Shown piece by piece: positions 1-12,287 of a DNA stretch of 12,287 bases. Numbering within the stretch: the stretch's first letter is position 1; every line of letters begins with the position of its first letter. The stretch is from a bacterium. GTDB lineage: Bacteria; Sysuimicrobiota; Sysuimicrobiia; Sysuimicrobiales; Humicultoraceae. A program made the position numbers and the translations under genes. The notes beneath the pieces were generated by a model. It searched no databases. It was not told where the DNA came from and saw only the letters and a list, made by a program, of their open reading frames with translations. Where the stretch lies: contig JBGQGY010000111.1 in the NCBI GenBank assembly GCA_041497675.1, positions 1 to 12,287 of the forward strand, read 5' to 3'.

Positions 1-1087
1 CGCCGCCGATGCCGTCCAACACCTCGCCCGCGCGTAGATGACGTTTGGCCGCGGCCAGGCACTCGGCCACGGGCGCGCCGATCGCGCTCATTGTCGACTC
101 GCCAAACAATGCGGCCCGTGCGACCGAGATGGGCGCCTCCAAGCTGGCCAGGTGATACGGGCGGTGCAGGAGGTAGTATGGTCCCGCGCCGGCCTTGAGA
201 TACGCCAGATCGCGGCGCACCGATTCGCTCGATGATGTCACGACGACGAACACGCCCGGTGCCACGTCGCCGACGGCGTACTCAACGGCGCCCCGCCGCC
301 GCAGGATGCCACCATCTCCATGCGGGACGAAGACTGTCAGCAGATCCGCAAGGTTGGCCCGCGGCCCGTGCATACCCAGCTGATCGGGCTGGAGACCGGT
401 GGCGTTGGCCAGCGACGCCATCTCGGCCATGGTTTTGGTCCCATCGACGAACGCGGCCAGCATCCGCGGGCTCATCCCGCGCGCGATCGCCTCGGCTTCA
501 ACGGTCTTCATCGTCGCGGCGCGGTCGAGACGATTGTTCTTCCCCTTGCCCGCACACACGATCTCGAGACCGATCGCCCGCGCAAACTCGACCATCTCGC
601 ACAGCACCGACGGCTCGTCACCGGCGGCGACGGTGTAGATCGTCCCTGCCGCTCGCGCCATCCAGGCGAGCAGCGGGCCAACGGTGACATCGGCTTCGAT
701 GTTCATCGTGATGAACGGTTTGCGCCGGCCGATCGCGGCCAGCGCTAGACGCGCGCCGGCGTCGGGATCTCCGGTGGCGTCGAGGATCGCATCGACCGCG
801 GGTGCATCTACGATCCACCCGGCGCGATCGCTCAGCGCGGCGCGGCCCTCGCGCACGATCCGCGAGACGTCTGCTGAAGTACCGGCCGGCTCCGCGCAGA
901 TCCCCGCGGCGGCGGCCGCGGCCACGGCGCGGTCGACCACGATGTCGCCGACCGCGGCGACCCGCATGCCCGGCAGACCGGCCACCTGGCGCACGAGCCC
1001 GCTGCCCATCTGCCCGGCGCCGATGACGGCGACCCGGATGGGACGACCCTCCCGTTCGAGGGACTGGAGCCGCGAGAGTATCGTCAT
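1..1087 (-). CDS. NAD(P)-dependent oxidoreductase, homoserine-dehydrogenase-like with C-terminal SAF domain (COG4091 type); 3' end runs off the window
   Basis: Not in the ORF track because it has no stop in the window. Manual translation from ATG at 1087: MTILSRLQSLEREGRPIRVAVIGAGQMGSGLV (Rossmann GxGxxG)...DAILDATGDP...MNIEADVTVGPLL...YTVAAGDEP...CAGKGKNN...FVDGTKTMAEMASLANATGL...GMHGP...APGVFVVV...GPYYLLHRPYHLASLEAP...AKRHLRAGEVLDGIGG (start of SAF domain). These motifs are characteristic of the family. Confidence 0.9.
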   Translation of the reverse strand, partial: MTILSRLQSLEREGRPIRVAVIGAGQMGSGLVRQVAGLPGMRVAAVGDIVVDRAVAAAAAAGICAEPAGTSADVSRIVREGRAALSDRAGWIVDAPAVDAILDATGDPDAGARLALAAIGRRKPFITMNIEADVTVGPLLAWMARAAGTIYTVAAGDEPSVLCEMVEFARAIGLEIVCAGKGKNNRLDRAATMKTVEAEAIARGMSPRMLAAFVDGTKTMAEMASLANATGLQPDQLGMHGPRANLADLLTVFVPHGDGGILRRRGAVEYAVGDVAPGVFVVVTSSSESVRRDLAYLKAGAGPYYLLHRPYHLASLEAPISVARAALFGESTMSAIGAPVAECLAAAKRHLRAGEVLDGIGG

Positions 1088-1119
1088 GAACAAATGTTCG
1101 TGATTGAATAAATGTTCAT
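1086..1119. promoter_or_regulatory. Tandem palindromic operator (two TGAA-N6-TTC[G/A] sites, 18 bp apart) directly upstream of the oxidoreductase
   Basis: ATGAACAAATGTTCGT (1086-1101) and TTGAATAAATGTTCAT (1104-1119) lie in an AT-rich patch within otherwise very GC-rich DNA. Each site is an imperfect palindrome and the two form a direct repeat. Confidence 0.7.
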
Positions 1120-1240
1120 CTCGTACATACCCTTACTCTGTTGTCCCCGCGAATCCTGCTGGATCGGCGGCGCCGTGTGGGGGCCGGTATGGGTGAGCTA
1201 CGTTGCGGCGGGGGTCAGGTGTGCGGTAATGTGCGGGGCT

Positions 1241-2608
1241 TCACACGGTCTCGGCCTGGCCGACCACCGGCACAGACGCCGGAATGCCGGCTGCCGTCAA
1301 TGCCGCTGCGTACGCCGTCGCGGGCGCCTCGTCGCCGTGGACACAGAACGCGCGGCCGATCCGCGGCACGCGCCGGGCCCAGGCGAGTAGTTCGTGACGA
1401 TCGGCGTGCGCGCTGAACGCATCGGCGCGCTCGACCCGAATCTTTACCTCGTACGGCTCGCCGTAGATCCGCACCGGGGAGACGCCGTCTTCCAGGCGGC
1501 GCCCCAGCGTGTGTTCGGCCTGGTAGCCGACGAAGAGCACGGTCGACCGCGGATCGCCGATGTGATGCCGTAGATGATGGAGGATGCGGCCGGCCTCGGC
1601 CATCCCCGACGTGGCCACCACGACAAACGGCCCGGTCTTCTCGTTGAGCGCCTTCGAGTCTGCATCGGCGCGCACGTAGTGGAGCCCTTTGAACCCGAAC
1701 GGATCGTGCTGCTCCAAGTGCTCGCGCACGTCGTCGTCAAAACATTCGGCGTGCACACGAAAGATGTCCGTCGCATCGATCGCCATCGGGCTGTCGACGT
1801 ACGCGTCAATGCGCGGTAGCGCCCCCGCCTCGCGCTGCGTATGCAATACGTAGACGACCTCTTGCGTCCGGCCGATCGCAAACGCCGGGATCAGCACCAC
1901 GCCGCCGCGCGCCGCCGTTTCCTTGATCACGGTGGTCAGGTGGGCGACGGCGCCGGCCCTCGGCAGGTGCTCGCGATTGCCGTACGTCGATTCGGTGATC
2001 AGCACGTCCACGTCAGGCATGACCTCCGGGTCGCGGATGATCGCGCTGTCCGGCCGGCCCAGGTCGCCGGTAAACCCCAACCGGCGGCCCTCGGCCTCCA
2101 CCAGCACCATCGCGGAACCGAGGATATGCCCCGCGTCGCGATACGTGACGGTCATAGCCCCGAAGTGGAAGGGGTGATCGTAGGGGATCGACACCAAGCG
2201 TCTGATCGCGCGTTCCGCCGCCGGCGCATCATAGAGCGGCTCGACCGCGGGCTCACCTTTCCGACGGCGGATTCTGTTGACGAAGTCGGTGTCCTGCGCC
2301 TGGACCTTCGCGGCGTCACGAAGCACCAGCGCGGTCAGGTCACGGGTGGCCGGCGTGCAGTAGATCGGCCCGCGAAACCCCGATGCCACCAGCGTCGGCA
2401 GGTTGCCGCAGTGATCGAGGTGCGCGTGGGAGAGAATGACCGCGTCGACGTCCGCCGCGGCGGTTGGAAACGTCCGATTGCGCTCGGCCGACTCCGCGCG
2501 CCGGCCCTGGAAGAGCCCGCAGTCGAGATACACCCGTTGGCCCGCGGTCTCGACCACGTGCAGGGATCCCGTAACCGTCCGGACGGCGCCGTGAAATGTG
2601 AGTCGCAT
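1241..2608 (-). CDS. Metallo-beta-lactamase fold / beta-CASP ribonuclease (YSH1/TTHA0252-like), 455 aa
   Basis: Start MRLTFHGAVRTVTGS at 2608, a typical N-terminus that overlaps the upstream stop (TGATG). Motifs: LDCGLFQG, SHAHLDHCG (HxHxDH), AGHILGS, FTGDLG, ESTYG, PAFAIGRTQE, SGMAEAG, GYQAEHTLGR, FSAHAD, VHGD. Confidence 0.93.
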   Translation of the reverse strand: MRLTFHGAVRTVTGSLHVVETAGQRVYLDCGLFQGRRAESAERNRTFPTAAADVDAVILSHAHLDHCGNLPTLVASGFRGPIYCTPATRDLTALVLRDAAKVQAQDTDFVNRIRRRKGEPAVEPLYDAPAAERAIRRLVSIPYDHPFHFGAMTVTYRDAGHILGSAMVLVEAEGRRLGFTGDLGRPDSAIIRDPEVMPDVDVLITESTYGNREHLPRAGAVAHLTTVIKETAARGGVVLIPAFAIGRTQEVVYVLHTQREAGALPRIDAYVDSPMAIDATDIFRVHAECFDDDVREHLEQHDPFGFKGLHYVRADADSKALNEKTGPFVVVATSGMAEAGRILHHLRHHIGDPRSTVLFVGYQAEHTLGRRLEDGVSPVRIYGEPYEVKIRVERADAFSAHADRHELLAWARRVPRIGRAFCVHGDEAPATAYAAALTAAGIPASVPVVGQAETV

Positions 2609-4251
2609 CAGGCCGCCGGTTTGCGCAGGCTGCCGACCAGGAAGCCTGCGGCGACCCGGCTCCCCAACCAGGCGAGCCACCGTGTCAGAAACCAGGCCTG
2701 ACCCGGCAGGATCAATCGATAGAGTTGATCCGCAAGACGCCGGCGCAAGAGGGGTGGGGCGTCGGCCGGGATGTCACCCGGGCCCACGTGGCTGAAGTCA
2801 CCGGCCGGCACATACGCGGCCTCGGCGTCCGGCACATACGCGAGACTCGGGCATTCTTTGGTCAACTGCTCGATCACCACGCGCGCGTCCGCGCGGCCAC
2901 GGCGCCAGTCGTGCTCGCGCCACCGCTCATCGAAAAATCCGCCGAAGTTGCCCAGAAAGTCGCCGGCCAGGCTGCCGTATGCCGGCGCGATAAGATGCAG
3001 TTTCATCTCGACCTTCTTTCGCAGCCCGGCGACGTTTTCCAGCACGTAGGCCAGCGTAAGGAACAGATCGGTCTTGGCAGGATCGTCGCGAATACGGTCG
3101 AGCGCCGCGCTGCCGGTTGAGAGCATTGGGCCCAAACGGCCGATGTTCGCTTCGAGGTGCCGGCGGGCCACCTCGGGGTGGGCCGGCACGCCGGCATGGT
3201 CGTACTCGCCCTTGACGGCCCCAATCTTCGCCGCCACGGCGCCGAGCCGGCCCGCAATTGCCGCGCCGTCTGACGAGGGAATTGCCGCGACGATCTCGGC
3301 CAGCGCCGCGATCAGACCGTCCTGCCATTCGAGGCGCGAGTTGGTGCGCAGGGCGCGGATCCAGTCGCGTTTGGATGATTCGCCGAGCACCGCGCTGACC
3401 AGGCGATCGAGTACCAGTCGCGCGCCCAGCGGGTCTGGGAGATTGACCTCAGGCGCGGCCGGGGCCACGTACGGGTCGATGAGGACGTAGTAGCGGCGGT
3501 CGCCGATGATCGCGGGGTCTTCGGCTTCGAGCTGGTCGACCATGTCCCTCGCCAGACCCACGGGCTCGTTGTTGAACATCCCACCGTCGACGTAGGTGAA
3601 CGCGCGGGTGCCGGCGTCCCTATAGATCTCGGAACGACGATAGTCGGCCAATCGTCGCTCCAGACGGACAGGAGCGAACGCAAACGGAAATGCGCCGCTC
3701 GCCACGGCGGCCCGTGCAACCGCCTGCCAGTCGGGCGCGCCGCCCGTCCGAGCGCCGGGGCGTGCCTGGAACACGATCCAATCCGAAAAGATCGTCGTGT
3801 CAAACCCGTTGCGGGCATTCGCATACCCGAGTTGGTACCTGACGCCGTTGAGATTCGACAGGGCAAACGCCATGCGCAGCAGCGGCGGGCTTGCCGGGTG
3901 CGGGGAGGGCACGGCGGGTGCCCGCTCGATCACCTCGCGCGCGAGCGACCAGATGTAGCGAGACGAGAGCAGGCCGGCCTCGGGATCCCCTTCGATCAGA
4001 CGCATGAAACTGATGTCGCGCACCCAGGCGCGATGGAGTTCGTCGACGCGCGTGGCGTCATCATACAATGCGCGGGCCGTCACCGCTGCGGTCATCGAAC
4101 CGGCCGACGCGCCGGTCAGCACGTCGATGATCACGGGCTCGGCCGCGTCACGACGATGCGACAGCGCCCACAACACCTCATACACTGCGCCGGCCTGGTA
4201 GGCGCCCAGCGAGACCCCGCCGGCCAGGGTGAGCGCAAGACGGGTGGTCAT
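2608..4251 (-). CDS. Patatin-like phospholipase family protein, 547 aa
   Basis: Start MTTRLALTLAGGVSLGAYQAG (Gly-rich oxyanion loop) at 4251, with an ATGA overlap with the sppA stop. GASAG nucleophile elbow, ASGAFPFAF, YVDGGMFNNEP (catalytic Asp DGG). The C-terminal FGGFFDERWREHDWRRGR resembles the DUF3376-type tail. Confidence 0.9.
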   Translation of the reverse strand: MTTRLALTLAGGVSLGAYQAGAVYEVLWALSHRRDAAEPVIIDVLTGASAGSMTAAVTARALYDDATRVDELHRAWVRDISFMRLIEGDPEAGLLSSRYIWSLAREVIERAPAVPSPHPASPPLLRMAFALSNLNGVRYQLGYANARNGFDTTIFSDWIVFQARPGARTGGAPDWQAVARAAVASGAFPFAFAPVRLERRLADYRRSEIYRDAGTRAFTYVDGGMFNNEPVGLARDMVDQLEAEDPAIIGDRRYYVLIDPYVAPAAPEVNLPDPLGARLVLDRLVSAVLGESSKRDWIRALRTNSRLEWQDGLIAALAEIVAAIPSSDGAAIAGRLGAVAAKIGAVKGEYDHAGVPAHPEVARRHLEANIGRLGPMLSTGSAALDRIRDDPAKTDLFLTLAYVLENVAGLRKKVEMKLHLIAPAYGSLAGDFLGNFGGFFDERWREHDWRRGRADARVVIEQLTKECPSLAYVPDAEAAYVPAGDFSHVGPGDIPADAPPLLRRRLADQLYRLILPGQAWFLTRWLAWLGSRVAAGFLVGSLRKPAA

Positions 4252-5234
4252 ATCAGCAGGTACTGCACGCTGAACGGCTCGCGCAATCCAGGATAGAGAT
4301 CCGCGGGGGTCCACAGCCATCCGCGGACGCGGTTCGCGGTGCCCCCGAGCAGCGACCGCAGCAATCCCTCACCACCATATTCCACGACCCGCGCCTGAGT
4401 GAGCCCTGCGAGCTTCATCGCGGCGTCGATGGCCTCGGGCAGATGCCCCATGGCGTCGACGAGACCGGCCTGCATGGCCTGCTGGCCCGTGTAGATGCGC
4501 CCGTCCGCCAGCGCCAGCACTTTGGCCCGATCCATCTTGCGGCCCTGTGCGACGATCGTGACAAACCGCGCGTACGCCTCGTCGACGAGCCGCTGGAAAA
4601 TCGCGCCCTCTTGCGGCGTCATAGGACGGTTCGGGTTGCCGAGATCTTTGAAGGCGCCGCTCTTGAAGATGATCGTGCGGATCCCGATCTTGTGGCTCAG
4701 ATCCTCCAGATTTGGCAGCGCCACGATCACGCCGATGCTGCCGGTGACGGTCGTCGGGTCGGCCACGATCTGTTCCGCGGCGGCGGCGATGTAGTACCCG
4801 CCCGAGGCGGCGGTCTGAGTCATCAGGGCCACCACGTGCTTCCCCGCGCGGCGCAGCGCCGTCACCTTCTGGTGCACCTCGTCGCTGGCCACGACCGACC
4901 CTCCGGGCGTGTCGAGTTCGAGGATGACCGCCTTCACCGCACCGTCACGCATGGCGCGGTCCAACAGCTGCACGACCGCGCGGCTCGCCGCGCCGGACGC
5001 AAAGACCGAGAATCCGGCGCCCTCGCGTGTGATCGGCCCAACGATCCGGACGATCGCAATCTTGTTGGGTCCGTCACCGCTGATCGGGCGCTCCGGCCCG
5101 GGCGAGAGCCCGCTGCCGGCCGCGCCGCCCGCCGCACCGGCCAGAAACCCCATCACACCGCCGAGTAACGCGGCGACCGTCAGGGCTGCCACCGACAGGA
5201 CGATGCCCACAGTGACCCATACCGCTTGTTTCAT
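4248..5234 (-). CDS. sppA: Signal peptide peptidase SppA, short form (peptidase S49), 328 aa
   Basis: ATG at 5234 with GGGAGG Shine-Dalgarno upstream. N-terminal transmembrane helix. Motifs KIAIVRIVGPI, LELDTPGGSV, AASGGYYIA (catalytic Ser), TGSIGV, KSGAFKD (Lys), LADGRIYTGQQA, GLVD. Confidence 0.93.
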   Translation of the reverse strand: MKQAVWVTVGIVLSVAALTVAALLGGVMGFLAGAAGGAAGSGLSPGPERPISGDGPNKIAIVRIVGPITREGAGFSVFASGAASRAVVQLLDRAMRDGAVKAVILELDTPGGSVVASDEVHQKVTALRRAGKHVVALMTQTAASGGYYIAAAAEQIVADPTTVTGSIGVIVALPNLEDLSHKIGIRTIIFKSGAFKDLGNPNRPMTPQEGAIFQRLVDEAYARFVTIVAQGRKMDRAKVLALADGRIYTGQQAMQAGLVDAMGHLPEAIDAAMKLAGLTQARVVEYGGEGLLRSLLGGTANRVRGWLWTPADLYPGLREPFSVQYLLI

Positions 5235-5260
5235 CGGGCTCAGCCTCCCAGAAAATGTTC

Positions 5261-6292
5261 CTATCTCAAGATGAGAAACATCAAGACGAAATACGCCACC
5301 AGCATGACAACACCAATGGGGACGGCGGCCACAGCCCACTCCTTGCTGCGGATCTTCAGCTTGCCGGCCGCGATGATGTTTGGGATGTTGCCCGGGATCA
5401 GCAGGCCGCCGCTGACAAGCAATCCCATCAACACCGCCCTGACCTGCTCTGCCGACATGCGGGGGCTGATCTCCGCCGCGGTCAGGGTGGCGTTGTCGAG
5501 GATCGCCGACACCATGTTGATCCAATAGAGAATGCGCGCGTCCAAGCCAATCACGTACCGATCGATCATCGGCTTGAACCCCTCGCCCAGGAACGTCAGC
5601 GCCATCACAAACACGTAGACGCGGACCGCGCGCTCGGCGACGTCCCGCAGGGACGCATACGGCGCCGGTGCGGTCAGCCCTCGATCGTGAGGCGGGAGCG
5701 TCACGCCACGAACGAACAGCAGGCCGCCAAGGACCACCACCCCCGGCACGACGTACCAGCCGAGCAGCCGGGCCAGGTACCAGAAGTCCTGCCCGAGCTT
5801 GGCGATCGCGATGGTGCTGAGTGGCTCGCCGATCGGCGTGAGGACTGCGCCCAACCCAATCGCATAACACGCGATCACGACAAAGCGCATCTCGTCCTTG
5901 CGCTCCAGACGCAGGATCGACGCAAACTCGACGAGCACCAGGGCGGCGATGATTGCCGTGATGACGCTCGACGCCAACCCAAGGATGATGACGGTCGCCG
6001 CCAAGAGCGCGCGAGGGCCGATCCGCCCGACCAGCCAGGTGACGCCGGACGCCAACCGCCGCTGACTCCGTGCGAATACCACGCCGGCGACGAAGACGGC
6101 GACCGTGATAGGGAGGGGGTGTGTGAGCGCGTCACGGATCAGGTGCGCGGTGAAGGCGTGGGAGGCCAGCGCCGAGAGGACGCCCATCACAAACAGGAAC
6201 GCCTCGAGGTTGTGCTCGATCCGCCGGTCCAGGAAGGGGGCGGCGAGGACGATCAGCAGGATGATGAGGTTGGCGGTCACGTCAAACGGCAC
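5261..6292 (-). CDS. DUF1646 family polytopic membrane protein, putative cation transporter of the IT (ArsB/NhaD-like) superfamily, 343 aa
   Basis: GTG start. Highly hydrophobic. Motifs IEHNLEAFLFVMG, LTPIGEPLSTI, SAILDNATLTAAEI and GGLLIPGNIPNII; the paired hairpin motifs are typical of the IT-superfamily internal repeat. Confidence 0.85.
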   Translation of the reverse strand: MPFDVTANLIILLIVLAAPFLDRRIEHNLEAFLFVMGVLSALASHAFTAHLIRDALTHPLPITVAVFVAGVVFARSQRRLASGVTWLVGRIGPRALLAATVIILGLASSVITAIIAALVLVEFASILRLERKDEMRFVVIACYAIGLGAVLTPIGEPLSTIAIAKLGQDFWYLARLLGWYVVPGVVVLGGLLFVRGVTLPPHDRGLTAPAPYASLRDVAERAVRVYVFVMALTFLGEGFKPMIDRYVIGLDARILYWINMVSAILDNATLTAAEISPRMSAEQVRAVLMGLLVSGGLLIPGNIPNIIAAGKLKIRSKEWAVAAVPIGVVMLVAYFVLMFLILR

Positions 6293-6301
6293 GGCACACC
6301 G

Positions 6302-6307
6302 ATTATA
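6302..6307 (-). promoter_or_regulatory. Sigma70-type -10 element (TATAAT) for the minus-strand operon
   Basis: ATTATA on the + strand is a perfect TATAAT on the - strand, 9 nt upstream of the GTG at 6292. No convincing -35 element. Confidence 0.6.
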
Positions 6308-6338
6308 CCGGACGCGCCGGCTTCACCGGGTCGCGACG

Positions 6339-6347
6339 TGATAGGAT
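6339..6347 (+). promoter_or_regulatory. Extended -10 promoter element (TGnTAGGAT) for tRNA-Ser
   Basis: TG-A-TAGGAT ends 8 nt before the mature tRNA 5' end and matches TGnTAnnnT. Confidence 0.5.
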
Positions 6348-6355
6348 ATTGGATC

Positions 6356-6444
6356 GGAGGAGTTCGGGAGCCTGGTACCCGGACGGTCTCGAAAACCGTT
6401 GGGCGTTCTGCGCCTCGTGGGTTCGAATCCCACCTCCTCCGCCA
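6356..6444 (+). tRNA. tRNA-Ser (anticodon CGA), class II with long variable arm, encoded CCA
   Basis: Cloverleaf folded by hand: acceptor GGAGGAG/CTCCTCC, D stem CGGG/CCCG, anticodon stem ACGGT/ACCGT with loop CT-CGA-AA, variable stem GGGCG/CGCCT, T arm GTGGG-TTCGAAT-CCCAC, discriminator G, then CCA. 89 nt. Confidence 0.96.
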
Positions 6445-6501
6445 TCTTCACACAGAACCGCGGGCGATTTCCTTTGCGATCGTTCTCTGCGGAGGCACCG
6501 T

Positions 6502-7971
6502 ATGCATCGGGCGTTCCCGATCCTGGCTCTGGTCGTGCTCGCCGCGGTCGCAGCGGCCACCGTGCCGGCGCTCGGCCTGCTGGCCGCCCCTGCGGCCGTG
6601 GCATGGGGCCGCGGCTTCGCGGCCGGCGGTCTGGCGGCGTTGCTGGCCACGCTCCTTGCGCTGCGCTCCACGCCCTCCGACCGTCTGAGCGCCGTCGTCG
6701 CGGTCGCCGCCATGCAATTCGCCGGGCTGGCGGCGGTGGTCGCCGCGGTCCACTGGTCGGGCACCGCGATCCTGGACGGGCTGGCGGGGATCGCCGCCGG
6801 CTGGCTGGTCACCTCGCTCGTTCTGCACCGCGGGGCGCAGAGTGTGGCGGCGTCCGGCGTGGGATTCGTGACGGCGCTCTGCGCGGCGGCGGCGCTGGGA
6901 CACTTCCGCCAGGCGGCCGCGGCCGTCACGCCGCCGTGGATATCCGCGGCGCTGGTGTTGGGCGCGCTGGGCGCGCTGACGCTGCTGGCGATCGGCATCG
7001 CGGCCGCGTACTCCGAGCGCCGGCGGGTCGCCCCCGAGTCGCCCCGCGTCACGCGAGACGTAGTCCTGATCGTCCTCGCATGTGTGATCGCCGCCGGCGC
7101 CGCATACGCTGTGGCCACTCGTACGCTGCATGAACCACGGTTCCTCGCGGCCGCCGGGATCGGGCTTGCGCTTCCTCTGGTGCTGGCGTGGCTGCTGCTC
7201 GACGATGAGCATCTGCAGGCGCCCGGCGGCTTTTCGCTGGACGCCGCGCTCGGTGTGCTCGTGACGCTCGGCGCCGCCATCGCGGCCTTCTACGCGCTGG
7301 CGGGCTACGGCATCGGTATCATGCTCATCGCCGCGTCGCTGCCGGCAGGGCTCATCCTCGCGCTGGGGGTTCCCCGCGGCGCCACCGCGCCGGGCGATCG
7401 CCTCGTGCAGTTGCTGCTCTTTGGCGCCGTTTTGGTCGTCTATCGCGTCTTCGTGCAGCGGTTCCAGGACGATCTGGGCGCCGCGGCGCTGACCGATCAT
7501 CTCGCGATGTTCAGCATGATCGTCGGCGCCGTCCTCCCCTCAATCCTAGGCGGCATTCTTGGACGCCCGTCCGACGCGCAGTCCGATCCCACCGCCGAAA
7601 CGTCGATCCGGCTCGTCCTGACGTTCGCCGGCGCGACCGCCTTCGGCGCCGCGCTGCTCGGGCTGTGGGGACCGAGGGCCGGGCTGGGATTCTTGAACGG
7701 TCTGTTGCTCGGTGCGGCGTTGCCCGGAGGAGGCTCACGGACCGGGCTGCTGGCGCTGGCGGCGGCGCTGCCGCTGATCCAGTGGTCGCACACGCTGCTG
7801 GCCTTCTCTGCACAGACCCGCGCCGAGAAGGCCCGCGTGGTGATGTGGCTCGTGGGGATCGCCATTGCCGTCGTTGCGGGAGCCGATCTCTGGGGACGCC
7901 TGACCCGCCGCGCGAGACCCAACGCCGCAGGTCAGCTCATCCAGCCCAGCGGCGAAGGAGGAGAGCGATGA
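6502..7971 (+). CDS. Polytopic membrane protein (about 15-16 predicted TM helices), 489 aa; possible non-catalytic membrane pyrophosphatase (HppA)-fold homolog
   Basis: GGAGG Shine-Dalgarno at 6491-6495, ATG at 6502 (MHRAFPILALVVL...). Nearly continuous hydrophobic segments. Stop overlaps the next start (ATGA at 7968-7971). The gene itself is well supported; the fold assignment is inference (see findings). Confidence 0.85.
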   Translation: MHRAFPILALVVLAAVAAATVPALGLLAAPAAVAWGRGFAAGGLAALLATLLALRSTPSDRLSAVVAVAAMQFAGLAAVVAAVHWSGTAILDGLAGIAAGWLVTSLVLHRGAQSVAASGVGFVTALCAAAALGHFRQAAAAVTPPWISAALVLGALGALTLLAIGIAAAYSERRRVAPESPRVTRDVVLIVLACVIAAGAAYAVATRTLHEPRFLAAAGIGLALPLVLAWLLLDDEHLQAPGGFSLDAALGVLVTLGAAIAAFYALAGYGIGIMLIAASLPAGLILALGVPRGATAPGDRLVQLLLFGAVLVVYRVFVQRFQDDLGAAALTDHLAMFSMIVGAVLPSILGGILGRPSDAQSDPTAETSIRLVLTFAGATAFGAALLGLWGPRAGLGFLNGLLLGAALPGGGSRTGLLALAAALPLIQWSHTLLAFSAQTRAEKARVVMWLVGIAIAVVAGADLWGRLTRRARPNAAGQLIQPSGEGGER

Positions 7972-10900
7972 ACCGGCGCCGTTGGCCCACCGCCGTTGTC
8001 GCGCTGCTGTGCTTGGGCGCCGCGCTCGTCTACGCCACGTGGCAGGAGCCGCCCGTGGGCCGTATCGAGGGCCGGGTGGTCGAGGCGGGTAAGGGCCTGC
8101 CGGTCGCCCGGGCCACGGTCGTCCTGACCTCGTTGGACGCCGATGGAGCGGTCACATCCCCGGTCCGCTACGTCCGGGCCGGACCGGACGGCCGGTTCTT
8201 CTTCACACAAGTGCCGACGGGTTCGCAGCAGGTGTCGGCGTTTCTCGACGCCTCCTCGGTCCAAGAAGCAGAAGTGACCGTCCAGGAGGGCGTGACGGCG
8301 GTTGTCACGCTCGCACTCGAAGCTGCGCGGCCATCGCTGCAGATGGCCGGCCCAACCCGTCACTTCACGACCGCCGAACGGCTCGTGCTCCCGGTCCGCG
8401 GATATGTCGAGAAAGGCGCGGCCAAGCGCGCTGTGCGTGTGCGAGTCTACCGGACCCGGATGTCGCATCTGCTGAGCCACCGGGTGACCGCGCAGGCGCT
8501 GGCGCAACTGGGCGCCGAGTGGGCGACGAACACCAAAATCCCCGACGTGCTCTTGAAGCCGCCGGCAGGTGATCGCCCGAGGCTCGTCCTCGAGCGCGAT
8601 GACGCGATCACCGAGGCGGGCGCGGAAGGTTTCTACAACAAGGTCATCGACCTTGGCCGGCAGGGAACCGGTCTGTATCTGGTCGAGGCCGCGTATGCCG
8701 ACACGACCGTCGCGACATGGCTGCTGGTGTCAGACACGGCCCTGGTGATCAAGAGCGCGCCGGGCGAGATGCTGGGGTTCGTGACCGACGCGGCGACCGG
8801 CCGGCCGATCGAGGCAAGCGCGGTGACGATCTTCCAGAACGGCAAGGCACTGGCGCAGGGCAAGACCGACACCAACGGTCTGGTCACGCTCGCCGTCGCC
8901 AAAGACCTTCAGGAGTTCTTCCTCGTCGCTGTGGCGCAGCGCGGCGACGACGAAGCCGTCGTCGGCCGGACCGAGTATCGTTTCGAGCACTCCGGCGAAT
9001 TCACGATCTACGCGTACACCGACCGGCCGGTCTACCGGCCGGGGGATCGCATCCACTACAAGGCGATCGTCAGGAAGAACGGCGCCCGGGGATTCGACTA
9101 CTCGGTGCCGTCGGGACAGACCGTGACGATCGAGGTGCGCGACCCCAACGGCGAGCCGATCTTGCGCGAGCAGCGCCGCACGAGCGCGCTCGGCACATTC
9201 TCCGGTCAGGTGGATCTGAGCCCCGAGGCGCGCACCGGCGCGTACGCCATCGTGCTCGTGACTGGCGGCACGACCGCCACGTACGATGTCGCCGTCGCCG
9301 CGTATCGCAAGCCCGAGTTCGCGGTGACCGTCACGCCGCAACGCACCGTCTACACACGGGGTGACACGATCACGCTCAACGTGTCGGCGCAGTTCTACTT
9401 CGGCGCGCCGGTCGCCGGCGGCACGGTCGAGTATTTCGTCTACCGATCGCCGGACTGGGCGTACGAGTATCTCGACCGCTCGGATGTCGAGCCCGAAGAC
9501 GCCTCGATCCTCTTCCCCGGCTATCGCGGCGACGGCCAGCCCGTGACCCGCGCCCAGGCGCAACTCGACGCGCAGGGCAAGGCGGTCATCACGTTTCCCG
9601 CCGACGTCCCAGACGAAGCCGACGCCCCACAGGCGCAGGTGTTCACCGCGTCCCTCGTTGTGCGCGATCCGGCGGGCCGGGAAGTCACCGCGGATCAGAC
9701 GGTGCGGGTGGCGGCCGGTGATGTCCGGCTGGCCGTGGAGACGGACGGATATCTCGCCGCGCCCAACACCCCGGTCGGCATTACGGTGACCTCGCAGGAT
9801 CATCAGCGGAAGCCCGTCGCCAATCTTCGGCTCGAGCTGGAAGTGCTCTACTGGACATGGACCCCCGGACGGTCCGGCTACTCGCTGGAGAAGGTCCAGA
9901 CGGTGCCGGCCGTCACCGGACCCGACGGCCGCGCGCAGGTGAGAGTCAATTTCCCGCGCCAGGGTTCGGTGCAGCTTCGCGCCAGAGCGGTCGATGGGCG
10001 TGGCCGCACGGTCCGCGCTTCCACGTACCTGTGGGTCGCCAGCGACGCCGCCGCAGACCTCGGAGGGCGTTATGCTGACCTCTCGCTGGCGACCGACAGG
10101 CGTCAGTACCGTTCCGGTGATGTGGCCAGGGTCTTGATCAATACTCAGCAGATCGGTCAGACGGTATTGCTCACCGTCGAAGGATCGCGCATCTATCGGG
10201 CCATCGCCATCCCGATCACGCGGCCCAGCACGGTCGTGCGGCTGCCGATCGAGCGCGAGTTCGGGCCGAACGTGTCCATCGAGGCGCTCTACGTCAGCGG
10301 GAAGCGTCTGTCGTCCAGCAGCGTCGGCATCCGAGTGGCGACGCCCGAGTCGGAGTTGCAGGTGTCCATCCGGTCGGATCGGGCACGGTACGGGCCGGGC
10401 GATCGGGCGACATACACCGTGGAGATCCGCGACGCGGCCGGCAAACCGCAGCAGGCTGAATTCTCGCTCGGTGTCGTCGATGAGGCCATCTACGCCATCC
10501 GCGAAGACGACCCGAAGGCGCTGCGCGAGGCATTCTACCCGCGGCGGTCCAACCGGGTACGCACCAGTTTCTCCTTCGCGTTGTTTTACCTGGGCGACGC
10601 CGACAAGGCGGAAGCCCGCATCGCCACGCGGTCCAGGTTCCGCGACACGGCGTTCTGGCAGCCCGCGCTGCAGACCAATCCTCTCGGCCGGGCGACGGTG
10701 TCGGTCACGCTGCCCGACAACCTGACCACATGGCGGGCAACGGTCGTGGCACACACCACGGACACGCGTCTGGGGCGCGCCACCCATACGCTCGTCGCCG
10801 CCAAGGACTTCTTCGTCCGGCTGGACACCCCACGGCTGCTCACGGAGCACGATCGCTCGCGCATCCTGTTAACTGTTCACAACGACACCGCCGCGGCTCA

Positions 10901-12287
10901 GCAGGCGACCGCCCGGTTGCAGATCGAGGGTCTCGTCGTGGAGGGCGGGGAGACGCACACGCTCGCCCTGGCCCCGCGCGCGTCGGGGCAGGTCGCCTGG
11001 CCGGTGACCGCCCGGCAGGCCGGCACCGCGAAGATTCGCGCCACCGCCTGGACGACCGGCGGTAGCCGTCAATACACCGACGGCGTCGAAATGTCGGTGC
11101 CGGTGCGTCCGCACGGCCGGCTGCAGGTCGAAGGCCGGGCCGGGGACGTCACCGCCGACCTGCCGGCGACCGAAACGTTCAACGTGGAGGCCGCGGCACA
11201 CCCCACGGGGAGTTCGTTGACGCTCCGGATCAGCCCCTCGGTCATCTCCTCGGCGGTCGGCGCGTTGGACTACCTCATTGGATATCCGTATGGCTGCGTG
11301 GAGCAGACGATGAGCCGGTTCTTGCCCACGGTGCTCGTGCAGCGAACGCTGCGTGTGGCCGGCATCCCCAACCCGGCTCTTGCGGCGCAGATCTCGCAGA
11401 TGGTCCGCGACAGCGTAGCGCGTCTGTATCGTTTCCAGCACGAGAGCGGCGGGTGGGGATGGTGGGAGTTCGACGAAGATCATCCGTGGATGACGGCCTA
11501 CGTCCTCTACGGGCTGGCGGTGGCCAGGGCCGACGGTCACCCGGTCAGTACCGACGTCCTGGAGAAAGCCCAGAAGGCCGCGCTGGAGTTGACCAAGCTG
11601 GCCGACCCCGATACGAGGATGTTCCTGCTCTACGCGGTGGCGCTCTCGGGCCGGCCCGACGCCGTCCGGAGCGAGTTGACCGGGCCCAGTCCGGCGGAGT
11701 TGGGTCCCCACGGTCTGGCCTACCGCGTCCTGCTGGCAAAGAGTCTGGGTCAGAATCCGCGCCCGGCGCTCCAGGCGCTGCTCCAGCGGGCTGTGGCGAA
11801 GGACGGGATGATCCACTGGGGCACGGCAGATCTCTGGGACTGGGATGCCTCAATGGCCACCGCGCTGGGTCTGCGCGCGATGCTGGCGGTCAACCCGCAG
11901 GATGTCCGCATCCCGCAGGTTGTGCGGTGGTTGATGCACAACCGGACCGGCCAGTATTGGTGGAGCACCCGGAACACGTCGTGGGCGCTGGCTGCGCTCG
12001 CCGACTATGCCGACACAGAACGTCGGGCCGCGGCCGAGCGCGGTACGACAGTCGAACGCGGGGCCGCGTCACTGGGGGGCGAGCTGCGCGTGCGGCTCAA
12101 CGGCCAGGTGATCCAGACGTATCCCCTCACGCGGGCGGCGGCGGGTGCCCCCGACCTCATGCTGCGAATCCCCGGCTCGTCCCTACGCCCGGGACGCAAT
12201 ACCGTGACGCTGGAACGCTCGGGCGGCGCCAGCCGGGTCTTCTACACCATGCAACTGCGGCAGGTCGTCGCCATGGACGAGATTCCG
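7968..12287 (+). CDS. Bacterial alpha-2-macroglobulin (MG2 / A2M / thioester domains) with N-terminal carboxypeptidase-regulatory-like domain; 3' end runs off the window (at least 1440 aa)
   Basis: Not in the ORF track because it has no stop in the window. AGGAGG Shine-Dalgarno. MNRRRWPTAVVALLCLGAALVYATW signal/anchor. Motifs in the same frame: YTDRPVYRPGD (~9015), AYRKPEF (9300), GVVDEAIY (10470), FRDTAFW, LPDNLTTWR, YPYGCVEQTMS (CVEQ at 11295-11306), QHESGGWGWW, WWSTRNTSWAL. Confidence 0.95.
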   Translation, partial: MNRRRWPTAVVALLCLGAALVYATWQEPPVGRIEGRVVEAGKGLPVARATVVLTSLDADGAVTSPVRYVRAGPDGRFFFTQVPTGSQQVSAFLDASSVQEAEVTVQEGVTAVVTLALEAARPSLQMAGPTRHFTTAERLVLPVRGYVEKGAAKRAVRVRVYRTRMSHLLSHRVTAQALAQLGAEWATNTKIPDVLLKPPAGDRPRLVLERDDAITEAGAEGFYNKVIDLGRQGTGLYLVEAAYADTTVATWLLVSDTALVIKSAPGEMLGFVTDAATGRPIEASAVTIFQNGKALAQGKTDTNGLVTLAVAKDLQEFFLVAVAQRGDDEAVVGRTEYRFEHSGEFTIYAYTDRPVYRPGDRIHYKAIVRKNGARGFDYSVPSGQTVTIEVRDPNGEPILREQRRTSALGTFSGQVDLSPEARTGAYAIVLVTGGTTATYDVAVAAYRKPEFAVTVTPQRTVYTRGDTITLNVSAQFYFGAPVAGGTVEYFVYRSPDWAYEYLDRSDVEPEDASILFPGYRGDGQPVTRAQAQLDAQGKAVITFPADVPDEADAPQAQVFTASLVVRDPAGREVTADQTVRVAAGDVRLAVETDGYLAAPNTPVGITVTSQDHQRKPVANLRLELEVLYWTWTPGRSGYSLEKVQTVPAVTGPDGRAQVRVNFPRQGSVQLRARAVDGRGRTVRASTYLWVASDAAADLGGRYADLSLATDRRQYRSGDVARVLINTQQIGQTVLLTVEGSRIYRAIAIPITRPSTVVRLPIEREFGPNVSIEALYVSGKRLSSSSVGIRVATPESELQVSIRSDRARYGPGDRATYTVEIRDAAGKPQQAEFSLGVVDEAIYAIREDDPKALREAFYPRRSNRVRTSFSFALFYLGDADKAEARIATRSRFRDTAFWQPALQTNPLGRATVSVTLPDNLTTWRATVVAHTTDTRLGRATHTLVAAKDFFVRLDTPRLLTEHDRSRILLTVHNDTAAAQQATARLQIEGLVVEGGETHTLALAPRASGQVAWPVTARQAGTAKIRATAWTTGGSRQYTDGVEMSVPVRPHGRLQVEGRAGDVTADLPATETFNVEAAAHPTGSSLTLRISPSVISSAVGALDYLIGYPYGCVEQTMSRFLPTVLVQRTLRVAGIPNPALAAQISQMVRDSVARLYRFQHESGGWGWWEFDEDHPWMTAYVLYGLAVARADGHPVSTDVLEKAQKAALELTKLADPDTRMFLLYAVALSGRPDAVRSELTGPSPAELGPHGLAYRVLLAKSLGQNPRPALQALLQRAVAKDGMIHWGTADLWDWDASMATALGLRAMLAVNPQDVRIPQVVRWLMHNRTGQYWWSTRNTSWALAALADYADTERRAAAERGTTVERGAASLGGELRVRLNGQVIQTYPLTRAAAGAPDLMLRIPGSSLRPGRNTVTLERSGGASRVFYTMQLRQVVAMDEIP
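12018..12071 (+). repeat. Degenerate in-frame 18-bp tandem triplication encoding ERRAAA-ERGTTV-ERGAAS
   Basis: Units GAACGTCGGGCCGCGGCC, GAGCGCGGTACGACAGTC and GAACGCGGGGCCGCGTCA. Units 1 and 3 match at 14 of 18 positions. Confidence 0.4.

Follow-up and report, generated by a model that had tools for sequence, protein, structure and literature searches.

What is left of a primary ion pump once the parts that split its substrate have gone, and what use might a cell make of the remainder? These questions are raised by a gene in a 12,287-nucleotide stretch of DNA from a bacterium of the phylum Sysuimicrobiota (GenBank assembly GCA_041497675.1, contig JBGQGY010000111.1, positions 1 to 12,287; the whole stretch is referred to as the window). 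The gene encodes P0001, a protein of 489 residues whose composition is 22.7% alanine, 16.8% leucine and 11.5% glycine, with a single lysine. An earlier note, drawn from the letters of the window, had proposed that this protein has the fold of a membrane pyrophosphatase (mPPase) stripped of all catalytic loops. The mPPases are ancient primary ion pumps, and their architecture comprises sixteen transmembrane helices (TM1 to TM16) arranged in two concentric rings, six inner and ten outer. Our analysis makes it highly probable that P0001 shares this fold, is homologous to mPPases and has lost their catalysis. The fuller explanation, in which this non-catalytic relative is also the membrane partner of an extracytoplasmic module that traps proteases and repairs the cell wall, is one that we moderately favor. 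The gene and its translation signal are as follows:

6491 to 6495, forward strand: Shine–Dalgarno-like GGAGG, six bases 5′ of the ATG, read directly from the sequence
6502 to 7971, forward strand: gene for P0001, a predicted mPPase-fold membrane protein of 489 amino acids with 16 helices, of which helices 1–15 correspond to mPPase TM2–TM16 and helix 16 is extra

Fold, ancestry and family of P0001

Structural modeling was based on an alignment of 97 family members. With these sequences, AlphaFold2 produced a confident model of 16 helices joined by short loops (predicted local distance difference test, pLDDT, 90.8; predicted template modeling score, pTM, 0.92), whereas an alignment of nine sequences gave a pLDDT of 39.1 and an unusable model. 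Since confidence was reached only with the 97 sequences, the fold derives from covariation in the alignment. Foldseek, one of the checks proposed in the earlier note, was run with this model against the PDB and retrieved mPPases only down to rank 35, with E-values of 1e-4 to 4e-2 and query-normalized TM-scores of 0.47–0.58; the first other fold stood far behind, at an E-value of 0.15 and a TM-score of 0.16. An independent search of 48,161 representative chains with VIA-align identified two chains with Z ≥ 8, both of them mPPases: Vigna 5GPJ (Z 26.7, root-mean-square deviation 3.0 Å, 435 aligned residues, model 1–446 on chain 88–766) and Pyrobaculum 8B37 (Z 25.3, 2.8 Å, 415 aligned residues). 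The next chain scored Z 7.6. A second look with VIA-align placed 21 mPPase entries at Z 25.3–34.3 and the next entry at 7.8.

The best of these matches, Thermotoga 6QXA_D (Z 34.3, 2.8 Å, 426 aligned residues), aligned residues 1–438 of the model with residues 49–726 of the enzyme, which is the collinear TM2–TM16 superposition anticipated by the earlier note. Overall, the mPPase superpositions span 415–435 residues at 2.4–3.2 Å, with a sequence identity of 12–15% in the structural alignments. Helices 1 and 15 of the model match TM2 and TM16, respectively, and helix 16 (residues 440–470) is additional. The model thus has the sixteen-helix, two-ring bundle that characterizes mPPases, represented by TM2–TM16 in P0001 and with TM1 added in most relatives. 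In 95 of the 97 members, a positive-inside count revealed an excess of lysine and arginine on the face that mPPases expose to the cytoplasm (median 17, versus 8 outside), and this supports the same membrane orientation for P0001 as for mPPases. A putative internal threefold repeat of TM3–6, 9–12 and 13–16 gave a weak signal when sub-alignments were compared with hhalign (best P 0.0014, 20 columns). Solved structures searched by sequence alone yielded no match with the nine-sequence profile and a best E-value of 0.13 with the 97-sequence profile, and the ESM Atlas yielded no usable match.

At the sequence level, the genome supplies its own point of comparison, an mPPase encoded on another contig (C81, locus L001, 1369–3744) that scores 810 bits against the Pfam family H_PPase (PF03030). 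Single-sequence comparisons with this protein were negative, with a BLASTP E-value of 4.8 for P0001 and an hhalign probability of 0.27–0.28% for the family. When the family was instead aligned by hhalign with an mPPase profile built from 19 sequences that are 72–100% identical to the genome's own mPPase, the score was 46.8 (P 7.3e-5, probability 62.6%), and the alignment was collinear over 452 columns, family positions 33–490 falling on mPPase positions 25–669. Reversal of either profile reduced the score to 20.0 and 20.7 (P 0.22 and 0.18) over 45–51 columns, and reversal of both brought the signal back (43.5, P 2e-4). Paired helix motifs common to the family and mPPases include GFLLGG~AFLLGC, ALAGYGIG~ALAAYGIA and GAVLP~GGAVP. 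With hhalign, the helix that most relatives add at the N-terminus (consensus MERsLLW) falls on mPPase TM1 (LETLLLW). All seven helix assignments offered in the earlier note (TM3, 5, 6, 9, 10/11, 12/13 and 14/15) coincide with the profile–profile alignment, an agreement that exceeds chance.

A second sequence-based comparison made use of a hidden Markov model (HMM) of the family, which was run on 94 whole genomes of the phylum. It returned 12 strong matches (E-value 2.4e-65 or lower) and five weak ones (E-value 3.0e-6 to 1.2e-4). These five, the sole matches outside the family, are mPPase genes: two encode PF03030 proteins (854 and 863 bits) and the other three are 87–88% identical to them.

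The family itself is real and under purifying selection. A word-indexed search of 5.8 billion proteins identified nine relatives at 38–98% identity, full-length orthologues included. The profile of these nine detected 275 representatives at E ≤ 1e-3, 191 at E ≤ 1e-10 and 111 at E ≤ 1e-30 among 1.84 billion cluster representatives. Among the 150 matches listed, lengths range from 87 to 679 amino acids, full-length members mostly have 500–610, and no large fusion is present; the N-terminus of most members is 35–40 residues longer than that of P0001, adding one hydrophobic helix. Named relatives include Candidatus Fervidifonticultor quartus and an Armatimonadota bacterium, and an exact-sequence look-up of ten distant members gave only the name 'hypothetical protein'. 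Selection, another check that the earlier note had suggested, was assessed by the ratio of nonsynonymous to synonymous substitution rates (dN/dS): for a 94%-identical orthologue it was 0.25 (488 codons, dS 0.12), and for an orthologue at 54% identity it was 0.35.

The gene is intact, in line with the argument of the earlier note from its frame, its Shine–Dalgarno sequence and its coupling to the next gene. The frame is open from 6502 to 7971, GGAGG lies at 6491–6495, and the stop codon TGA (7969–7971) shares an ATGA (7968–7971) with the start codon of the downstream gene (7968–7970). A gene for tRNA-Ser(CGA) is located at 6356–6444 on the forward strand, 57 bases 5′ of the P0001 gene. A longer frame from a TTG at 6349 was rejected as a gene, and the start was set at 6502, because that frame runs through the tRNA. 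The clade comprising P0001–P0006 lacks the N-terminal helix, equivalent to TM1, that is present in most family members, and the tRNA gene stands where the missing coding sequence would be. Nineteen sequencing runs labelled sediment metagenome each contain at least half of the window's words; no RNA run was found among the sequencing runs containing window words.

Could the likeness to mPPases be convergence or an artefact, a generic Ala/Gly/Leu-rich bundle forced by AlphaFold2 onto a fold that it had memorized? The mPPase structures did belong to the training data, nothing emerged from Pfam or from single-sequence comparisons, and identity in the structural alignments is as low as noted above. 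Several further points count against homology at the sequence level. The five weak HMM matches are close orthologues from one genus and therefore amount to a single observation, and the genome's own mPPase is not among them. P0001 matches no Pfam or NCBIfam family at E ≤ 0.1. PF03030, the comparison proposed in the earlier note, is matched neither by P0001 nor by any of 84 further members (E ≤ 0.01), none of which scores above the cut-off of any Pfam family; we therefore regard P0001 as a relative at the superfamily level, not as a family member. The hhalign probability is only 62.6%, and the template profile is narrow. An artefact is nevertheless very unlikely. The model became confident only with the deep alignment, and two structure-free sequence tests favor mPPases and fail on profile reversal. 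The gap between Z 25–34 and 7.8, over 415–435 residues in the same helix order, goes far beyond generic bundles. The reading of the resemblance as generic composition was rejected in view of this gap, the helix order and the reversed-profile controls. It would be more improbable still that P0001 is a decaying pseudogene or a mis-called open reading frame (ORF), a possibility worth raising in a GC-rich genome, where long spurious frames arise and several overlap P0001. Full-length orthologues at 38–98% identity, the 275 representatives, the dN/dS of 0.25, the translation signals with their start/stop overlap, and the conserved operon order described below rule out both readings and uphold the view of the earlier note that the gene is no pseudogene.

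Catalytic sites, ion gate and outer face

The seven catalytic motifs of mPPases are absent from P0001, as the earlier note had stated, and none of the 97 family members carries any of them; the genome's own mPPase has all seven. According to the consulted portion of PMC6882861, the residues of the hydrolytic center are rich in Asp and Lys and lie on cytoplasmic extensions of TM5, 6, 11, 12, 15 and 16, helix extensions of about 20 Å that occur together with loops. In the model, the turns at these sites, between helices 4/5, 10/11 and 14/15, are only 5–6 residues long:

6814 to 6864, forward strand: cytoplasmic turn between helices 4 and 5 (residues 105–121), at the site of the mPPase TM5/TM6 extensions with DVGADLVGK and DNVGDNVGD
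7357 to 7392, forward strand: cytoplasmic turn between helices 10 and 11 (residues 286–297), where mPPases have the catalytic extensions of TM11/TM12
7711 to 7743, forward strand: cytoplasmic turn between helices 14 and 15 (residues 404–414), where GGAWDNAKK and GDTVGDP are found in mPPases

Approximately 44 residues are missing between the equivalents of TM5 and TM6 in the profile alignment. In columns of low confidence, the further claim that the motifs had been deleted rather than substituted holds for five of the seven sites, which fall in gaps, but not for the EYYT and GNTTAA sites, which face substituted residues.

Within the membrane, the ion gate of mPPases is formed at mid-depth by D6.50, E6.53/6.57 and K16.50. 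In helices 5 and 15, which correspond to TM6 and TM16, no Asp, Glu or Lys reaches 70% conservation, and the gate therefore also appears to be gone. In the hhalign alignment, the TM6 gate residues lie at the edge of a gap and K16.50 stands opposite Ala, again in low-confidence columns. Judged from sequence and model, P0001 cannot act as a pyrophosphate-driven pump, lacking both the hydrolytic extensions and the acidic and lysine residues of the gate; pyrophosphate hydrolysis and pumping of H+ or Na+ are expected to be absent. Because the family fails three features that define mPPases, namely the Pfam match, the hydrolytic center and the ion gate, it was filed as a remote superfamily relative.

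Conservation in the family is concentrated elsewhere, with the best-conserved segments predicted to lie toward the outer side:

7441 to 7500, forward strand: best-conserved family motif YRVFVQRFQDDLGAAALTDH (residues 314–333), predicted to lie in the outer loop and at the adjoining end of helix 11
7780 to 7830, forward strand: second motif QWSH...TRAEK (residues 427–443), located in helix 15 (outer half) and the first part of the extra helix 16

Among the 97 members, the conserved polar positions are R87 (70%), D92 (87%), R136 (89%), R315 (98%), R320 (93%), D332 (90%), K/R392 (75% Lys and 21% Arg), Q427 (93%) and R440 (94%), along with W428 (86%). Their predicted positions are the outer ends of the helices equivalent to TM5, 6, 12, 13, 15 and 16. 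In the cytoplasmic half, only glycines and hydrophobic residues are conserved. Glycines retained within helices comprise G36, G38, G42, G96, G100, G221, G268, G270, G342 and G400; P346 is retained as well.

Operon with a macroglobulin and VanW

The gene downstream of P0001 encodes a thioester alpha-2-macroglobulin, a type of protease trap, with the following features:

7968 to 12287, forward strand: membrane-anchored thioester alpha-2-macroglobulin, translationally coupled to P0001, 1440 amino acids before the contig ends
7968 to 8045, forward strand: N-terminal hydrophobic anchor
8064 to 8321, forward strand: CarboxypepD_reg domain
11292 to 11306, forward strand: thioester motif GCVEQ (CXEQ), residues 1109–1113

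Its MG2, bMG3, bMG5, A2M_BRD (bait region), A2M and TED_complement domains were detected above the Pfam cut-offs or nearly so, and the C-terminal bMG10 part opens another contig of the same genome (C102). On that contig, bMG10 is followed by a VanW+G5 protein (VanW 146 bits; stop/start overlap), a 307-amino-acid protein of no known family and a HAMP-HisKA-HATPase kinase. VanW domains are shown to be L,D-transpeptidases in the consulted part of PMC11348318. The locus combines a macroglobulin containing MG, bait and CXEQ-bearing TED domains with an adjacent peptidoglycan cross-linking enzyme, the two ingredients of a trap-and-repair system.

This gene order is conserved. A macroglobulin gene lies directly 3′ of the family member in all eight loci of the phylum with downstream sequence (the window and L023–L029), and VanW follows in each of the six that reach that far. 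In a further set of 15 metagenome loci (GC 54–67%, 31–47% identity to the query), 11 have downstream sequence; a macroglobulin of the same type is next in ten of them, with VanW following in both loci long enough to include it. All 18 aligned macroglobulin N-termini have the anchor, a TPVG-type motif and CarboxypepD_reg. Across the 94 genomes of the phylum, bMG10 and a strong family match occur in the same 12, and the other 82 have neither. This count includes one unpublished genome, G024 (11 and 11 without it), and the 12 genomes are related and not independent, yet come from seven genera in three families. The genome that contains the window, which is 98.6% complete, has no match to AMMECR1 (PF01871), and none turned up among the scanned neighbors in the other loci.

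In three related genomes, VanW is followed by a Pfam-less protein of about 305–330 amino acids and then by a HAMP-HisKA histidine kinase (L045 1535–4027 on contig C102 of the window's genome, L025 5–2307 and L028 5–1908). The Pfam-less protein is 53% identical between L028 and L025, and neither it nor the kinase was found in L024, L033 or L043.

From the operon linkage and the conserved polar residues at the outer ends of the helices, we infer a partner role. P0001 would be a remote, non-catalytic mPPase relative of the inner membrane that keeps the helix bundle (TM2–TM16, or TM1–TM16 in most relatives) together with an extra C-terminal helix, its inner-ring helices shorn of the extensions of about 20 Å that bind and hydrolyze pyrophosphate. 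It would be made together with the macroglobulin trap and the VanW cross-linker. Its conserved polar residues would lie where the helices lining the mPPase exit channel end on the outer side, and its outer face might dock, position or control the macroglobulin, the transpeptidase or both, or bind a ligand. P0001 could accordingly be described as the membrane platform or partner of an extracytoplasmic trap-and-repair module, a role whose probability we put at about even.

A complex prediction for P0001 with residues 1–250 of the macroglobulin scored 0.30 and 0.25, below the mark of 0.32, and speaks neither for nor against a contact. Certain observations do speak against this partner role. The macroglobulin has a membrane anchor of its own and no obvious need of a platform, the metagenome locus L030 contains a family member without a macroglobulin downstream, and it is helix order, mPPase topology and the positive-inside count, instead of measured geometry, that locate the conserved residues at the outer mouth. 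Other roles can be imagined for the same bundle. P0001 could transport or bind a negatively charged wall intermediate attached to lipid, for instance a precursor linked to undecaprenyl pyrophosphate, with an outward-open, Arg-rich cavity formed from the former exit channel that would feed or recycle substrate for wall repair beside VanW. The conserved residues at the outer ends are indeed mostly basic (R87, R136, R315, R320, K/R392 and R440), the operon partner acts on peptidoglycan and the conduit bundle of mPPases is retained. This role is nonetheless unlikely: VanW-type enzymes, as described in the consulted part of PMC11348318, use tetrapeptide stems of the existing wall instead of lipid-linked precursors, and the structure searches brought up no similarity to a known flippase or phosphatase above Z 7.8.

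We regard as rather doubtful the proposal that P0001 is an ion channel or an energizer based on the proton-motive force, in which ion flow through a retained mPPase gate and exit channel would drive or sense changes in the partner proteins outside the cytoplasm, or would convey a signal to the histidine kinase two genes after VanW in this lineage. The kinase does lie 3′ of the operon in the window's genome and in two related loci, and mPPases conduct H+ or Na+ through the same six inner helices (PMC6882861, consulted in part). The membrane core of helices 5 and 15 has no conserved acidic residue or lysine, however, the conserved positions of the cytoplasmic half are only glycine or hydrophobic, and the kinase is absent from other scanned loci, such as L024, L033 and L043. 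Set beside these alternatives, the partner role in the trap-and-repair module remains the one that we prefer. A bolder version of it, in which the family would be the first non-pump branch of the mPPase superfamily, a bare core in which the outer mouth of the former ion channel has become the working site and which gates, energizes or senses the trap and the cross-linker, is speculative and in our judgment improbable.

As to the exceptional metagenome locus, L030 (2303–5015) contains a full-length family member, a gap of 326 bases and a 224-amino-acid ORF of no known family.

Comparison with known systems and other genes of the window

The closest structural counterparts of P0001 are the mPPases themselves (PF03030), represented by 6QXA and 5LZQ from Thermotoga maritima, 4A01 and 5GPJ from Vigna radiata and 8B37 from Pyrobaculum aerophilum, with which it shares the bundle, the helix order and the predicted orientation. 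It differs from them in its length (489 versus 650–791 amino acids), the absence of a hydrolytic domain and an extra C-terminal helix. The conserved polar residues of its family lie on the predicted outer face and not on the cytoplasmic face, and its genomic partners are a macroglobulin and VanW. The genome's own mPPase, with a frame of 791 codons, likewise has a hydrophobic helix after TM16, and hhalign aligns this helix with the family's extra helix 16 in low-confidence columns. This alignment may be a hint that the family arose from a 17-helix type of mPPase. More broadly, it could be a reduced mPPase descendant or a surviving relative of a catalysis-free core ancestral to the pumps.

An mPPase relative without part of the enzyme is also known from maize, where the truncated vacuolar H+-PPase ZmVPP5 is, in the consulted portion of PMC5071666, a recent truncation close to a full-length paralogue; the P0001 family, in contrast, is an old, separate lineage that shows no similarity at the Pfam level and has motifs of its own. 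In the part of PMC6882861 consulted, the mPPase fold is described only for the pumps themselves. Our literature search, which left most subscription journals outside its range, found no description of a catalysis-free mPPase relative, of this family or of this operon.

With respect to the operon, the nearest parallel is the yfhM-pbpC pair of E. coli (ECAM and PBP1C). The consulted text of PMC4498604 reports that yfhM, which encodes a thioester macroglobulin, is often in an operon with pbp1C and proposes that the two act as a defense-and-repair pair. Both systems place a membrane-anchored CXEQ macroglobulin beside a peptidoglycan cross-linker. In the P0001 operon, VanW, an L,D-transpeptidase, replaces PBP1C, and the macroglobulin begins with a transmembrane anchor and CarboxypepD_reg, unlike that of the E. 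coli pair; the polytopic mPPase-fold protein encoded by the first gene has no counterpart in E. coli yfhM-pbpC.

The Mag operon of Pseudomonas aeruginosa and the yfaS operon of E. coli offer a further comparison, since in each a bacterial macroglobulin works within a membrane-associated complex of several proteins that a single operon encodes. To our knowledge, the macroglobulins of Mag and yfaS lack a thioester, and their partners are not 16-helix proteins of the mPPase fold.

A conserved family that consists of the bundle only would indicate that the mPPase bundle is stable and useful without its hydrolytic domain. The P0001 family would provide a naturally occurring minimal scaffold on which the gate and exit-channel region and the origin of the triplicated fold could be studied, and P0001 would represent an unexpected third component of bacterial defense modules that combine a macroglobulin with a wall enzyme.

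Further genes noted in the window lie on the reverse strand:

5261 to 6292, reverse strand: membrane protein of the DUF1646 family (394 bits), also weakly matching a putative Na+/H+ antiporter family and oriented divergently from the tRNA and P0001 genes
4248 to 5870, reverse strand: SppA (S49) signal peptide peptidase
2608 to 4320, reverse strand: patatin-like phospholipase with a short DUF3376 piece, overlapping the nuclease frame by 73 bases
1241 to 2680, reverse strand: beta-CASP metallo-beta-lactamase nuclease
2 to 1093, reverse strand: DRL-type oxidoreductase, cut by the edge of the window

The listed SppA frame and the DUF1646 gene have about 600 bases in common, and the true start of SppA is therefore probably further downstream; an SppA gene also adjoins the family member in L023. 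Among NCBIfam families, the nuclease comes closest to type VII CRISPR Cas14 (406 bits, against a cut-off of 800) and archaeal aCPSF1 (310 bits, against a cut-off of 580), well short of the threshold in each case.

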